Sequence record: OQ743992
Length of the DNA: 64,000 nt
Direction: 5' to 3' (one strand)
Origin: Escherichia phage vB_EfeM_pEP20
In this document: positions 37,050 to 48,769 of the stretch, in pieces
Numbering within the stretch: position 1 is the first letter of the stretch
Layout of the letters: every line of letters begins with the position of its first letter
Made by a program: the position numbers and the translations under genes
The notes under the pieces: generated by a model
The model's database searches: none
Seen by the model: only the letters and a program-made list of their open reading frames with translations
What the model was told of the DNA's origin: nothing

Positions 37050-37306
37050 GTAAGCCTCTTTTAAGTAACTATTAAGTTTTAATCTTTTATCTTAACGTAT
37101 TCTATACGTTATACTTTAAAGCTTTTTAAAAGCTATTAAATAATCTTTTAAGAGTTTTAAAGTATCTGTATAGTTAAACTGTTAAGTAACCTTTTAAGTA
37201 AAAACCCACTTCGCAAAGATTAACACCTTGTCAAGTACATTGTCAACTTGCTTTTTATAATTTTTTGCAGTAATGTATGAGGTTAATGATTTTAGAGGGA
37301 GTAAAA

Positions 37307-39449
37307 ATGGAAAACGTAGATTTTAAAAACTTACATTTAGTTGGTGATACAGAAACTGATGGTTTACTCCTTGAGTTCACTAAAGTACACGTAATGGCTT
37401 TCGCAGACTATAAATCTGACGATGAAGAGCCACCTGTATGGGTCTTTACAGATGAGCCTATCCTCGGTCACAAGTATACCAAGTACATTAAGGGTGGTTT
37501 GCGTGAAGGTGTTGAGTTTGCGTTAAAGGCAAAACGGCTTTGCATCCATAATGGTCTGGGTTATGACTGGTGGGTTTTCAATCACATTGCACCTGATTTA
37601 TGGAACTTTGATAATCCAAAGTGTAAGCCGTGGAGTAATTTCTTTCAGGATTCTCTTATCCAGTCTCGTGTTCAGTGGATGGATAGACCAACTCCAAAAG
37701 GCTATAAAGGTGCTCATGGCTTGGCAGCGTGGGGTGCTCGTGTTGGTGTTCGTAAACCAGAGATTGAACATTGGGGTGTGTGGAATGCAGAAATCTTCAC
37801 TCGTGTTGTAGAAGATATCCGTATTAACGCCAAAACTAAACGTGCACTGGATAATGAATATCTCAAACTTAAGAAGTGTGGTATAGACACTTATGAAACC
37901 TATATGAGAGCTAAAGAAACATCTTTCTGGATGAGTCAACAAGCTATCAATGGTTGGAAAGCTGATAAAGAGCTTATGGAGTTCCATGTAAAGGAACTTG
38001 ACAAGTTGACTAATGAGCTTGCTTCAGAAGTTGAACCACATCTTCCTCCAACTATTAAGACCAAAGGTAAAGTCACTGGAGAAGAGTTTGCAAAAGCTTG
38101 GAATGAATATGTTGAAACATTCGGTCATGCAGATGGACTGAAGAGAATTACAAAGTACCCTAAGACGAAGTATCGCCAACAGGTACGTAACGGTGAGATG
38201 CAGACATACGAAATCAAGCCATTTGGGAAGCCAACTACAAAGATTTTTAACATTGAAAAGCGGAATTGCTATACACCAACCAACTCCGTAACTGGTGAAG
38301 AGTACAAGGAAGGTTTTGTAGCAATGAAGGATGCTCGTGCAATTTGCAATGAGTTGAATGCAAAGATTGGTAAGAAGTGCAAAGACTGGAAGCCAGTAAA
38401 AACAGTTAAAACTGTGAAGTACTATAACAGCCATGTTGTTAACCACTTTGAACTTGAGTCAAGTCGCTACACAGGTTTGATTGATGCACCATATACACCA
38501 ATTGAGTTCGAAGTTTCTCGTATGACTCAGGTAGCAGTTGTTAAAGACTACTTGAAATCAGTTGGTTGGATTCCAGATGACTGGAACTACAAGAAAGACT
38601 CAGATGGTCGTCCTGTTAAGGTTTGTCGCTTCAAAGACAACAAAAAGATGATTACAAAACATCCTAAGTGGGATGAGATGGTGGAACGGTGTGGTTTGAG
38701 TTATGTTGAACACGAAGGTGTCCAGTACATTGAACATAACTGGTCTGTTAAGAAGTACACAGATTTGCTTGAGCCTTGCTTAATCCGTACTTCACCAAAA
38801 CTTACTGAATCATCTTATGACACGATTGAAGGTGAGCTTGGACAGAAGATTGCGAAATACTATACTTTGATGCACCGACGTAGAACTATTGAGAACTCAA
38901 AAGATGATGAAAAAGGTTGGTTGAACCAGATTCGTCCTGATGGTCGCCTTAGTGCTGGTGCAATGGTGTTTGGTACTTCAACTGGACGTATGACACAATA
39001 TGGTATTGTAAACGTGCCGTCTGGTGCTGCTGTCTATGGAGCACCTATGAGGGAGGTCTGGACTTGTGAAGAAGGTACTAATATTGTTTCAGCCGACATG
39101 AATAGCGCCCAACTTGTGCTACTGTGTAACTTTATGGGCGATAAAGATTTCACTAAAGCGGTGACAGAGGGTAAAGAAGAGGTTGAATTTGTCAAACAAG
39201 AGGATGGTAGATACTATTGCAAACATTTTGACCAGTATCTAAACCCAGCTATTGACAAGTATTTACATTATGATTCTGAAAATGACTTATACGTGGTGTA
39301 CTCAGGGACTGATGCACACACTTTGAATAGTATCTACTTCAGTCTTAATAAAGAGGAAGACATCTTGACATGTCGAGCTACTCAGGATACAAGTCTTCTT
39401 CAAGAAATTAGTAAAGGTCGTAAGAAAGCCAAAAATGGCATCTATGCGT
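37307..39449 (+). CDS. DNA polymerase, family A (T7 gp5-like), exon 1 (3'-5' exonuclease and most of the polymerase domain, to within motif B)
   Basis: N-terminal HLVGDTETDGL exonuclease motif; ends RKKAKNGIYA (compare T7 RDNAKTFIYGF) at a T; RBS GAGGGAG; continues at 40252. Confidence 0.75.
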
Positions 39450-40251
39450 CAGTGGCGCATGTAAAACGTTGTGAATTGCTGGAAGCCTAAGTCTGTAAAG
39501 ATATGGTAATCAGCAGCGAAGTCTCTGTTAGGACTCCTAAAACAAAGGAGAGAGACAATGGCAGGTTACGAAGAGAGATTATGCACTGAGTGTGGTACGG
39601 AGTTTAAACCATATCAATACAATCAGAAACGGTGCAGAAGTTGTGTATTAAAGTTTGACAGAAGGGCAGAACACAGGGTTCTTACTAAGAAATGCCCTAG
39701 TTGTGAGAAGGTGTTCATGCCGAGAACAGCAAGGCAAGTTTATTGTTCGTCACATTGCGGTGAGAAAGGTAGAGTTAAGAATTACTACCTAAGAACATAT
39801 GGATTGGAAAGAGGAGAGGTTGAGGCTCTACTCCGTGACTGTGATTACAAATGTCAAATTTGTGGCGGTGAAGGTTTTATCATGAATGGTTCACGACACA
39901 AGGCTAAACTTGTTGTTGACCATGACCATAAAACCGGAAAGGTAAGAGGTATGTTATGCCACAATTGCAACAGAGCTTTGGGGTTGCTTGCAGATAGTGT
40001 TGATAACATGCAAAGAGCAATTGACTATCTAAGCAAATGATATAACTATAGAGATTCCTAACAGAGAAACGTTCAGAGACTATCGAAAAGCATACTTAAC
40101 GTATGAACTGAGTAGAGTAGGGTGGTAAGCTAATGACCATTCCCAAGTGCAACGGTAGTATTACTACTACGTGATATAGTCCGACACTCCGTAGAAATGC
40201 GGAGAAGTTCATAAGAGAACTGGTACACCTTGCGAGTGTATTGACCAGATG
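39450..40251 (+). mobile_element. Intervening sequence in the polymerase gene, probably a group I intron, carrying an HNH endonuclease ORF
   Basis: Polymerase homology resumes in frame 802 bp downstream; 5' exon ends in T and insert ends in G; internal ORF has its own RBS. Confidence 0.6.
39558..40040 (+). CDS. HNH homing endonuclease (intron-encoded)
   Basis: Zinc-finger CxxC pairs plus VDHDHKTGKVRGMLCHNCNRALG HNH motif; RBS AAGGAG. Confidence 0.75.
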   Translation: MAGYEERLCTECGTEFKPYQYNQKRCRSCVLKFDRRAEHRVLTKKCPSCEKVFMPRTARQVYCSSHCGEKGRVKNYYLRTYGLERGEVEALLRDCDYKCQICGGEGFIMNGSRHKAKLVVDHDHKTGKVRGMLCHNCNRALGLLADSVDNMQRAIDYLSK

Positions 40252-40808
40252 TATTGTTCGGTGCAGGTGATGAGAAGTTTGCTAAGACGATTAAAGCATC
40301 TACAACTGAGGAAGGTGCTTTAACTAAGCAAACATACTTTGTACGTCTCCCTAAAATTAAGAAGCTGCTGGATAATTTAGAAGCAGACTTCAAAGCCACT
40401 AAGAAGGCTCTTGAAGAGGTATTTGGTAAGACTGCCGCAATCTCTAAAGGGGGTTTTGTAAAGGTTGCTGGAGCTTGGTTGTGGTGTAAATCTCCACATA
40501 AGTTATTGAATTATTTGCTTATGGGTTCTGAAAGTCAGGTTCAGAATGAAGCCATCAACCTTGCTTGTAGAAGAACTTGTGAAGAGGGTCTTACAAAGTT
40601 GAATGGTCGAAAACCAGCTATTGGCGCTAGATTGCTTTTAGCATATCACGATGAGAATAGTTGGGAGTGCCCAGAAGACATGACGCAGGATGTTAAAGCA
40701 GTAATTGACTGGATGTATGGTCAAGCGTCAAGAAATTTAGGGCTTAAGAAAGAAACGCTTGTTACGGGCACTGGTAAGGTTGGTAAAAGCTGGCTTGAAG
40801 TACACTAA
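40252..40808 (+). CDS. DNA polymerase, family A, exon 2 (rest of motif B to motif C and C-terminus)
   Basis: (L)LFGAGDEKF (compare T7 LYGAGDEKIG), SPHKLLNYLL (compare SPHAALNTLL), AYHDENSWEC motif C (compare WVHDEIQVGC), C-terminal GKSWLEVH (compare GPNWAICH). Confidence 0.75.
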
Positions 40809-40869: not shown

Positions 40870-41088
40870 ATGACACTTTCAGAGATTGAAGTTCAGTTGC
40901 AATGTGCAGGTTATTCTCAAAAAGAGATTGAAGGGATGTTTATTGTTCTTTGCAGTAGCTGTAGGAATTTGAAGGTAAACCCTGAAGTTCTACGTAGAGT
41001 AGATATCTTTATTGCTGGAGGTAAAATCGCAAAAGATAAGACAGGCTACTTAAAAGGTGAGCGTGTAAATATTGAGAGTTTACTATGA
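40870..41088 (+). CDS. Small protein (72 aa), paralog of 41291-41503
   Basis: RBS AGGAGG; shared C-terminal IAGGKIAKDKTGYLKGERVNIE with the paralog. Confidence 0.5.
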   Translation: MTLSEIEVQLQCAGYSQKEIEGMFIVLCSSCRNLKVNPEVLRRVDIFIAGGKIAKDKTGYLKGERVNIESLL

Positions 41089-41294
41089 GCCACCGTGGAA
41101 GAACCCATGCAGCAATGATGAAAGGTGCTTCAAAGGAAACTATCAAGAACCGTAAGCAGAAGTTGTTTGAGAGAATGAACAGGCTAATTGACAATTCATC
41201 TCTTTCAGGTTCTGAGAAGGTTTTCTTGAAAGGTAATCTGAAAAGCATTGCACAAGAACTTATTGATATTGAATATTGGAGACATCAAAAATGA
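41085..41294 (+). CDS. Small basic protein (69 aa)
   Basis: ORF; overlapping start/stop with neighbours. Confidence 0.4.
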   Translation: MSHRGRTHAAMMKGASKETIKNRKQKLFERMNRLIDNSSLSGSEKVFLKGNLKSIAQELIDIEYWRHQK

Positions 41295-41503
41295 CACTTG
41301 CAGACGTTATTCAGCAACTTCACGATAATTGCTACACTCCAGAGTTGATTCAAGAGATGCTTATTGTGGTGATGCCTAGTAAGTTCGTAAAAGGTTTTAA
41401 TAGTGAATCTTTAAAGTCTGCGCATATCCTTATTGTTGACGGTAAGATTGCAAGAGACCGCACAGGAGTCCTTAAGGGTGAACGTATCAGTATTGACCTC
41501 TGA
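41291..41503 (+). CDS. Small protein (70 aa), paralog of 40870-41088
   Basis: Start moved to ATG (MTLADV...) after GGAGA; C-terminal IVDGKIARDRTGVLKGERISID. Confidence 0.5.
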   Translation: MTLADVIQQLHDNCYTPELIQEMLIVVMPSKFVKGFNSESLKSAHILIVDGKIARDRTGVLKGERISIDL

Positions 41504-47869: not shown

Positions 47870-48769
47870 ATGTCACAAGCAGATTCAAGTTATAAAAATA
47901 TCCTGAACCATGTTTTATCAGTTGGTGAACTGCGTACTACACGAACTGGAGATGTTATCTCTGCATTTGCTCCACCTCAGTTTCGTTTTGATATGCGAAC
48001 TGGTTTCCCGCTCTTAACATCTAAACAGGTGTTTACACGGCAAGTTATTGGGGAAGCTCTATGGTTCCTGAACGGTGAGAATAAGCTGGGTGAACTTCGT
48101 TACCGTACTTGGGGTGAAAATGACGGAGAACGCTGGACTATCTGGTCAGATGATTTTAAACGCTGGTTAAGCTCTAACTATTCTTCTGAACAAGATTGGT
48201 TAGAGGATGCAGGTGGAAGAATCTACGGAGTTCAGTGGAGAAACTTTGAAGGTCATAATGGTTGTGTTGTAGACCAGTTAGAGACCTTAGTAACGAAGAT
48301 GAAGGGTGATATCACAGACCGTTACATGCTTGTTAATGCTTGGAATGCAGCAGATATTGCAGCAAACTTAATGGCTCTAGCACCTTGTCATGTTCTGTTT
48401 CAGATTTATATCACTAACGAGGGTGAAGTTGACTTACAATGGTATCAGCGTTCTGTAGACACCTTTTTAGGACTTCCGTTTAATATTGCATCTTATGGAT
48501 TTATTCTGGAAGTTCTTTGTAAGATGACTGGATACACTCCACGGTACTTGATAGGTGTTTTTGGAGATACTCAGATTTATCAGAATCATATGAAGCAGGT
48601 TTATGAACTGATGAACAATGAAGAGTTTCATGCACCGACTTTTGAGATTGGTTTACAGCTTAACACTTTAAGTGACTTAAAACATCTCACTGCAAGTGAC
48701 TTTATCGGTGGTATTAACAATTACCAACATGCAGGAAAGATTGAAGCACCTTTGTCAGTAGGTAAATAA
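47870..48769 (+). CDS. td: Thymidylate synthase
   Basis: Active-site LAPCHVLFQIY (PCH motif); 299 aa. Confidence 0.85.
   Translation: MSQADSSYKNILNHVLSVGELRTTRTGDVISAFAPPQFRFDMRTGFPLLTSKQVFTRQVIGEALWFLNGENKLGELRYRTWGENDGERWTIWSDDFKRWLSSNYSSEQDWLEDAGGRIYGVQWRNFEGHNGCVVDQLETLVTKMKGDITDRYMLVNAWNAADIAANLMALAPCHVLFQIYITNEGEVDLQWYQRSVDTFLGLPFNIASYGFILEVLCKMTGYTPRYLIGVFGDTQIYQNHMKQVYELMNNEEFHAPTFEIGLQLNTLSDLKHLTASDFIGGINNYQHAGKIEAPLSVGK

Follow-up and report, generated by a model that had tools for sequence, protein, structure and literature searches.

A putative mobile group I intron encoding an Endonuclease VII-type enzyme within the gene for DNA polymerase in Escherichia phage vB_EfeM_pEP20

Group I introns of the IA2 type interrupt the family A DNA polymerase genes of several virulent phages: SPO1, SP82 and Bastille (I-HmuI, I-HmuII, I-BasI), Pf-WMP3 (I-PfoP3I), phiL7, and phiI/W31 (I-TslI). 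These introns carry the endonuclease open reading frame (ORF) in P6a, occupy highly conserved coding sites at positions 674, 676 and 881 of E. coli Pol I, and in some cases lack P2 (PMC3428280). They encode canonical HNH nicking enzymes, and their splicing has been demonstrated. Escherichia phage vB_EfeM_pEP20 (sequence record OQ743992), of which a stretch of 64,000 nucleotides (nt), hereafter the window, was analysed, very probably possesses a similar element: its family A polymerase gene appears to be split by an 802-nt IA2-type group I intron with an endonuclease gene of its own, but the insertion is in motif B, the endonuclease is of the Endonuclease VII (DHHRN) type rather than canonical HNH, and splicing and homing are deduced from sequence. 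The element is a textbook mobile group I intron of a phage polymerase gene, ordinary in kind, already known and noted in the literature.

Copies of the intron have been met in relatives of this phage. The genome announcement of phage Meda describes an intron without HNH endonuclease sequence in the DNA polymerase gene (PMC6486253), and the Meda record contains a joined polymerase coding sequence (CDS), the 2968 nt of which, less a 268-nt intron, leave 2700 nt or 900 codons, in agreement with the junction found in the window. Proteins of phages JH2, EC6 and FSL SP-010 have been listed as intron-encoded (Fang et al. 2018, PMC6083498); the accession AGF88709 in the supplementary table of that study denotes the coding sequence that the intron described here contains in SP-010. 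These Felixounavirus copies (JH2, EC6, FSL SP-010 and HK3 with the ORF; Meda, Mushroom and JLBYU28 without it) share the insertion site and the splice junction, and with ribozymes 96-100% and ORFs 72-99.8% identical to those of the window they show no substantive difference from it. No introns are described in the genome paper on Felix O1, in agreement with the intronless polymerase site observed in FO1a. Most of the GenBank records of the group that were inspected annotate two polymerase CDSs and an endonuclease.

The preliminary description of this DNA had proposed that a T7-like polymerase frame stops after ...KAKNGIYA and resumes in frame at LLFGAGDEK, restoring motif B around an insert of 802 nt at 39450-40251. 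These coordinates are exact with respect to the intronless alleles of Shigella phage Sf15 and Salmonella phage FO1a, each of which has a single polymerase CDS reading ...KGRKKAKNGIYALLFGAGDEKFAKTIKA...; the intronless site (Felix O1 or Sf15) reads ...AATGGTATCTATGCTTTGTTGTTCGGTGCAGG.... The polymerase ATG at 37307 is preceded by a GAGGGAG Shine-Dalgarno sequence, and exon 1 ends with ...RKKAKNGIYA plus U, the first base of a leucine codon. From there its frame enters the insert for 13 codons up to a TAA stop at 39488-39490, the exon part reading ...KGRKKAKNGIYA. The ORF of exon 2, in a +1-shifted frame, reads (L)FGAGDEK...AYHDE... and ends at 40808. When 39449 is joined to 40252, a stop-free ORF of 899 amino acids results, reading ...KGRKKAKNGIYA[L]LFGAGDEKFAKTIKA, and its product across the junction (KNGIYA/LLFGAGDEK) is identical to the Sf15 and FO1a proteins. 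Because the bases beside the two boundaries differ (U39449 ends exon 1 and G40251 the intron, while C39450 opens the intron and U40252 exon 2) and the protein is conserved, the junction is unique and cannot slide. The 5′ exon thus ends in U and the insert in G, as had been noted beforehand, and the junction TATGCGT/CAGTGG...CCAGATG/TATTG is common to 12 other intron-bearing alleles.

The spliced product can be assigned by sequence to the T7-like family A polymerases, with motifs A, B and C contiguous. It scores 56.5 bits on PF00476 (DNA_pol_A; threshold 34.3 bits), the best stretch, residues 680-895, spanning the junction at residue 715, whereas the unspliced fragments alone remain below the threshold at 17.9 bits (exon 1) and 26.0 bits (exon 2). 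Motif B of the spliced protein, GRKKAKNGIYALLFGAGDEK, aligns with TRDNAKTFIYGFLYGAGDEK of T7 gp5 from T7 position 517, the T7 stretch aligned in the family A test being RDNAKTFIYGFLYGAGDEK; motif C (AYHDE) is located in exon 2, where the preliminary description had placed it. The intron splits the codon that matches T7 F528 after its first base and so breaks the motif B helix between the equivalents of T7 G527 and F528. The insertion site presumably corresponds to L764 of E. coli Pol I, and the tyrosine four codons upstream of the insertion codon is the equivalent of T7 Y526.

The insert can be folded as a group I intron with the P3/P7 pseudoknot core included, as listed in Table 1. In the drawn structure, which comprises P1, P10 and P3 to P9.2 and has no P2, 92 of 93 pairs are canonical, and the 7-bp P1 is closed by the splice-site wobble U39449.G39455. 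According to published criteria for subtype IA2, extra P7.1 and P7.2 elements lie between P7 and the 3′ strand of P3, with a GUA-containing linker (PMC3428280). The insert is assigned to IA2 by its sequence on these features, since it has P7.1 and P7.2, the GUA-containing linker GAGUAGAGUA between them, and an ORF in P6a. At the gathering threshold, which is 50 bits for the Rfam group I family RF00028, no match was obtained in the whole 64 kb; a relaxed scan of the window copy gave one partial RF00028 match, 39477-39567 (P4-P6), at 24.6 bits (E 7e-4). The low score is most likely due to the 483-nt ORF that occupies the P6a loop. Natural alleles without the ORF match RF00028 over its full length, at 64.2 bits for JLBYU28 and 62.3 bits for Mushroom, and their ribozyme parts are 98.7-100% identical to those of the window. 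The earlier proposal of a group I intron, for which folding of P1-P9 with a covariance model had been suggested as a check, is borne out by these scores, by the covariation described below, by the existence of intronless alleles and by the DNA_pol_A domain that regains its full score once the exons are joined.

Table 1. Features of the interrupted polymerase locus in the window, all on the + strand; paired strands are joined by "with".
Feature	Position	Strand	Basis or remarks
Exon 1, family A DNA polymerase	37307..39449	+	Exonuclease domain, motif A, first half of motif B; ORF list, sequence
Group I intron, IA2 type (predicted), 802 nt	39450..40251	+	Exact insertion relative to intronless alleles; Rfam on ORF-less copies
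P1	39443-49 (UAUGCGU, exon) with 39455-61 (GCGCAUG, internal guide sequence)	+	7/7 canonical
P10	39450-54 (CAGUG) with exon 2 40252-56 (UAUUG)	+	5/5 canonical
5′ half of ribozyme core	39467..39533	+	Pairing checked; Rfam alignment spans P4-P6
P3	39467-73 with 40148-54	+	Pairing checked
P4	39477-82 with 39510-15	+	Pairing checked
P5/P5a	39486-94 with 39499-506	+	Capped by GNRA loop GUAA (39495-98)
P6	39516-17 with 40071-72	+	Pairing checked
P6a	39522-33 with 40056-67	+	12 bp, encloses ORF
Small hairpin around Shine-Dalgarno (predicted)	39534..39550	+	CUCCU (39534-38) with AGGAG (39546-50); minimum free energy fold, -5.5 kcal/mol
Putative homing endonuclease gene, 160 aa, 483 nt	39558..40040	+	PF02945, PHROG 307, alignments
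3′ half of ribozyme	40056..40251	+	Pairing checked
P7	40078-83 with 40176-81	+	GACUAU with AUAGUC
P7.1	40091-105	+	Pairing checked
P7.2	40120-44	+	Pairing checked; recovered by RNAalifold
P8	40155-70	+	Pairing checked
P9	40187-204	+	GAAA loop
P9.1	40207-20	+	Pairing checked
P9.2	40223-41	+	Pairing checked
Terminal G	40251	+	Last intron base
Exon 2, DNA polymerase	40252..40808	+	Remainder of motif B (LLFGAGDEK), motif C (AYHDE), C-terminus

A tblastn search with the endonuclease identified homologous introns in a Pseudomonas Pakpunavirus (phage PhL_UNISO_PA-DSM_ph0034; locus L015, 2348-3056) and in a T7-like, Berlin-like Yersinia phage (locus L014, 2317-2996). They have the architecture of the window intron (no P2, the ORF in P6a, P7.1 and P7.2, and P9, P9.1 and P9.2), share with it the core motifs GACUAUC and GAUAUAGUC, and differ from it in the sequence of most helices, in compensatory fashion; their ORF-bearing copies reach 40.5 and 27 bits on Rfam. 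The two endonucleases are 41% (Pakpunavirus) and 51% (Yersinia phage) identical to that of the window. Like the window intron, both interrupt a family A polymerase within motif B: that of the Pakpunavirus occupies the homologous codon in the same phase 1 (K-x3-Y-x-[codon]; AKNVKYG[C]TYG), and that of the Yersinia phage lies 11 nt upstream, in the codon for T7 F524, in phase 2 (AKT[F]IYG). The endonuclease genes are packed differently: in the Pakpunavirus (L015 2453-2926) the last 15 or so codons overlap the 3′ strand of P6a, P7 and P7.1, the 3′ half of the ribozyme starting near 2880, and in the Yersinia phage the 3′ strand of P6a is also within the CDS, whereas the ORF of the window stops short of P6a.

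Six ORF-stripped introns from the three phage groups were aligned with MAFFT. RNAalifold, unguided by the drawn model, recovered P1, P3, P4, P5, P6/P6a, P7.2, P8, P9 and P9.1, with 19 compensatory pairs. With the drawn structure, in which the P7 pseudoknot and P10 were also counted, 89.9% of the cells were paired versus 82.0% in shuffled alignments. In this count the outer P6 stands a column out of register (helix 7, 8% paired); RNAalifold places its pairs at columns 81-119 and 82-118, where they are an invariant G.U and C-G in six of six sequences. Pairs changed on both sides numbered 18 versus 7.5 in shuffles, and in neither measure did any of 500 shuffles reach the observed value. When the 3′ partners were moved by 1-3 columns, 28-48% of the cells were paired. 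The weight of the covariation case lies on the unguided RNAalifold result and on these shuffled and slid controls. In the 5′ half, covariation is found in P3, P4, P5 and P6a, and the test of the group I core also counts P6 and P8; in the 3′ half, compensatory changes on the MAFFT alignment are in P8, P9, P9.1 and P9.2. P1 itself has a compensatory change, column 6/21 being C-G in Felixounavirus and G-C in Pakpunavirus, and P7, which agrees with the Rfam consensus, has six canonical pairs out of six in each of the six sequences.

Within Felixounavirus, pair U39522-A40067 of P6a becomes C-G in JLBYU28, BPS17W1 and HMD-P8, and pair U40159-A40166 of P8 also becomes C-G; the few remaining changes in the ribozyme are located in loops (L5, L7.1, L8, the P7.2 bulge and J7/9). 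The most variable spot of the ribozyme is the L5 tetraloop at 39495-39498: the window has GUAA there, S.Kent GAGA, BPS17W1 and HMD-P8 GGAA, and SP-010 and Barry UAAA. That it remains GNRA in most alleles suggests a tetraloop-receptor contact.

A blastn search for distant relatives, with 39250-40450 as query, sorted 337 records into three classes of allele. About 40 records span the whole query and possess both intron and ORF; records with the intron but without the ORF cover 55-60% of the query (span 664-709 nt); and the largest class, without intron, covers 33% of it with a span of 396-398 nt, exactly 802 nt shorter. The 3′ half of the ribozyme is present at an identity of at least 95% in 96 records, its identity in them being 96-99.5%; about 56 of these approximately 96 records are without the ORF. 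The intron occurs in about a third of the sequenced relatives and is missing from about two-thirds of the polymerase genes of Ounavirinae. Identity of the flanking exons to the window is 84.5% for the intronless Sf15 and about 78% for the intron-bearing SP-010. Exon similarity thus does not predict whether the intron is present, which points to gains or losses. Damaged copies are also found. In VpaE1, a 22-nt deletion frameshifts the ORF into two annotated pieces; in Mushroom and warpig the ORF has been deleted, the deletion ending in the similar sequences GACTCCTAA (39532-40) and GACTATCTAA (40023-32); and JLBYU28, BPS17W1, HMD-P8 and Meda have a 268-nt intron with a minimal P6 hairpin. Judged by sequence, empty, full, frameshifted and ORF-deleted alleles make up the series that would be expected for a homing element.

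The different parts of the locus diverge to different extents. Against 11 other alleles, the 190 nt of exon flank are 70-100% identical, compared with the narrow range of the ribozyme halves and the wide range of the ORF given above. Synonymous differences over 192 flanking exon codons (pS) amount to 0.3-0.84, with most comparisons at 0.5-0.84. Ribozyme halves that are 96-100% identical beside nearly saturated silent sites indicate that the RNA is far more constrained than the silent sites next to it. Either nearly every base of the ribozyme is constrained, or the ribozyme parts have been homogenised between phages separately from the ORF.

The gene inside the intron had been described as a free-standing HNH gene with its own ribosome binding site (RBS). 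An internal endonuclease gene is indeed present, and its ATG is preceded at a distance of 8 nt by the Shine-Dalgarno sequence AAGGAG; however, the gene is intron-encoded rather than free-standing, being contained in the P6a loop and ending 16 nt before P6a, and it is not a canonical HNH gene. Residues 79-159 of its product match PF02945 (Endonuclease_7) at 69.6 bits (threshold 23.6; E 2.2e-19), and the protein matches PHROG 307 "endonuclease VII" (4.5e-41) and PHROG 1271 "HNH endonuclease" (1.5e-13). No canonical HNH family was obtained in the Pfam scan at E <= 0.01, only Endonuclease_7 and weak matches to zinc ribbons. Its best relatives of solved structure are Hpy99I (1.7e-5) and T4 endonuclease VII, with CxxC, DHDH, R and CxxC-N conserved in the alignments: KCQIC...DHDH...VRG...CHNCN aligns with C23/C26, D40-H43, R54 and C58/C61/N62 of T4 Endo VII. 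Proteins with the Endo VII motif are without the central asparagine of HNH (Fang et al. 2018, PMC6083498). By sequence, therefore, the product is classified as Endonuclease VII-type (DHHRN family), a family that is united with HNH in the beta-beta-alpha-metal superfamily.

The CX2C...DHDH...R...CX2C-N motif is shared by three described enzymes with different roles. F-CphI of cyanophage S-PM2, the founding DHHRN member, is free-standing beside an intron-containing psbA gene and has the motif in its C-terminal part, as does the enzyme of the window; the defining residues were shown to be essential in F-CphI (Fang et al. 2018, PMC6083498). T4 Endo VII, with the motif N-terminal, is a junction resolvase, and Hpy99I is a restriction enzyme. 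The enzyme of the window, in contrast, is encoded inside an intron and has a zinc-ribbon-like N-terminal region of its own: the 78 residues ahead of the catalytic domain contain four cysteine pairs (CxxC) resembling two zinc ribbons, and this region is presumably the DNA-recognition part. The ratio of nonsynonymous to synonymous divergence (dN/dS) of the ORF against the S.Kent allele is 0.05, with dS of about 1.5, and synonymous sites are saturated against SP-010 and Barry; by this measure the ORF encodes a protein under strong purifying selection.

Translation of the endonuclease may be damped by the small predicted hairpin in which the Shine-Dalgarno sequence is paired (Table 1). Masked ribosome binding sites of intron ORFs are known from T4, and similar hairpins enclosing the Shine-Dalgarno sequence can be drawn in SP-010 (L009 ~382-403), the Pakpunavirus (L015 ~2424-2456) and the Yersinia phage (L014 ~2387-2423). 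In the four introns the folding energies are not significantly better than those of shuffled sequences (z -0.3 to -2.3), and partial masking of the RBS is no more than hinted at by the modelled fold.

Several observations weigh against the interpretation of the insert as a splicing and homing group I intron. The window copy itself scores below the Rfam gathering threshold (24.6 versus 50 bits). P7 and P7.1 are invariant among the Felixounavirus copies, and P7 is invariant in both outgroups as well, so that covariation neither supports nor contradicts these two elements because there is no variation in them. The comparative set consists of three independent lineages only, and MAFFT misaligns parts of P4, P7.2 and P9.2. 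A hand-registered comparison of helices, the only one in which compensatory changes appear in P7.2, gives 50 canonical pairs out of 50, 31 of them compensatory, but is partly circular, as the strands were picked for their complementarity, and is illustrative only. Divergence of the ORF tracks divergence of the exons; vertical inheritance over a long time would account for this no worse than frequent homing in recent times, and the parallel suggests that ORF and exons have been co-inherited for long in these lineages. Finally, no report of experimental splicing or cleavage of this intron was found in the papers searched.

The last but one of these observations bears on the best-surviving alternative, that the internal ORF encodes a Holliday-junction resolvase (a true endonuclease VII) or an RNA maturase instead of a homing endonuclease and that the intron is no longer mobile. 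Parallel divergence of ORF and exons is compatible with vertical inheritance, and the Pfam and PHROG families bear the name of endonuclease VII, which in T4 is a resolvase. Both the ORF and the whole intron are nevertheless optional among relatives, making a resolvase role unlikely because an essential resolvase would not be so dispensable. A catalytic motif that is C-terminal, behind zinc-ribbon-like modules, places the protein in the endonuclease clade rather than the resolvase clade (Fang et al. 2018, PMC6083498). The Pakpunavirus and the T7-like phage, moreover, have related ORFs inside introns whose insertion site in the polymerase gene is the same or close by. This alternative is considered improbable.

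Less probable still is that the insert is a splicing-dead relic and the polymerase consists of two polypeptides that assemble non-covalently, exon 1 extended by 13 residues and exon 2 translated from TTG 40254. Such an arrangement is what HK3, JH2, VpaE1, Barry and other records imply by annotating two polymerase CDSs on either side of an "endonuclease VII", and the in-frame TTG does exist; but an annotation of two CDSs is the default of a gene caller and not evidence, no Shine-Dalgarno-like sequence was found before TTG 40254, the exon 2 start chosen by the annotators, and the polypeptide would be broken inside the motif B helix (T7 G527/F528). Nor would a relic be expected to keep its ribozyme 96-100% conserved next to saturated silent sites; the ORF-less copies exceed the Rfam threshold, and the U.G pair of the splice site, P10 and the terminal G are all intact. 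As for an intein, a group II intron, or a site of translational bypass or frameshifting, which have only the bare fact of gene interruption in their favour, they can practically be dismissed: an intein is at odds with a length of 802 nt (3n+1), a host frame that stops after 13 codons, an ORF in a different frame and the lack of a Hint/intein domain in Pfam, a group II intron with the lack of a reverse transcriptase ORF and of a group II Rfam match, and bypass or frameshifting with Rfam and covariation results that point to a group I fold.

If the insert is a mobile group I intron, the polymerase gene would be transcribed as a single pre-mRNA; neither a sigma-70-like promoter nor an intrinsic terminator was predicted inside the intron. 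By comparative analysis, the insert folds into an IA2-like ribozyme. As in other introns of the family, the guide at 39455-39461 would hold U39449 in P1, and an external guanosine would attack after this base. P10 would then align exon 2, and the terminal G40251 would be used for exon ligation. The ligated mRNA would encode the 899-residue T7-like family A polymerase with motif B (the O-helix) intact. The Endo VII-type nuclease would be translated from its own RBS inside the P6a loop, which the small hairpin may partly mask. From its family and the pattern of alleles, the most likely role of the enzyme in a mixed infection is to cut polymerase alleles that lack the intron, close to the site of insertion, and recombinational repair would then copy the intron into the cut allele.

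A broader proposal is that the Felixounavirus, Pakpunavirus and T7-like Yersinia introns are one lineage that has moved among three unrelated phage groups into codons of motif B, with one retargeting by 11 nt. It was considered jointly with two explanations of the invariant Felixounavirus ribozyme: the RNA might do more than remove itself, for instance by gating polymerase expression, or alternatively the ribozyme halves might have been homogenised repeatedly between phages independently of the ORF. Taken together, this set of ideas is rated as rather unlikely.

The polymerase region (37277-40808) matched 260 phage records, nearly all of them from E. coli and Salmonella myophages that belong to Felixounavirus or elsewhere in the Ounavirinae, the closest being Escherichia phage HK3 (97.9% identity over the whole query). 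By sequence, the source DNA is accordingly identified as a Felixounavirus (Felix O1-like) genome. Felix O1-like polymerase sequence, in some cases with the intron, is also deposited under the names "Campylobacter phage A132/A126" and "Staphylococcus phage SA1"; these records are probably mislabelled or contaminated. The neighbours of the polymerase gene, namely an ATP-dependent DNA ligase, a helix-turn-helix protein, dihydrofolate reductase and an uninterrupted thymidylate synthase (47870-48769), fit a Felix O1-like replication module. The thymidylate synthase gene is a classic intron host in T4; the 64-kb window yielded neither a further signal resembling a group I intron nor any Rfam match that reached the gathering score.

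Directly after the polymerase stop, Mushroom (L001 1654-1909), JLBYU28 (L002 1626-1864), FO1a (L004 1336-1596) and Meda (L016 1446-1589) have a separate HNH endonuclease gene, which may represent another homing element, free-standing in this case, that competes or cooperates at the locus. Where these phages with ORF-less introns and the intronless FO1a carry the HNH gene, the window has small ORFs only. Two of the ORFs of the window in this region, 40870-41088 and 41291-41503, are paralogues (42% identity over 69 amino acids, E 2e-16) separated by a 69-residue ORF.

For annotation, the value of these findings is that a single spliced polymerase gene and an intron-encoded homing endonuclease would stand behind the pair of "DNA polymerase" genes and the isolated "endonuclease VII" of most records inspected. 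Motif B (the O-helix) becomes the fourth insertion site of introns in family A polymerases, and no concept is altered thereby. To our knowledge, no intron-encoded member of the DHHRN/Endo VII-type family has been characterised biochemically. The genomes already deposited, with the site empty, the intron intact, its ORF frameshifted and its ORF deleted, constitute a natural series in which the homing cycle of an Endo VII-type enzyme may be followed.

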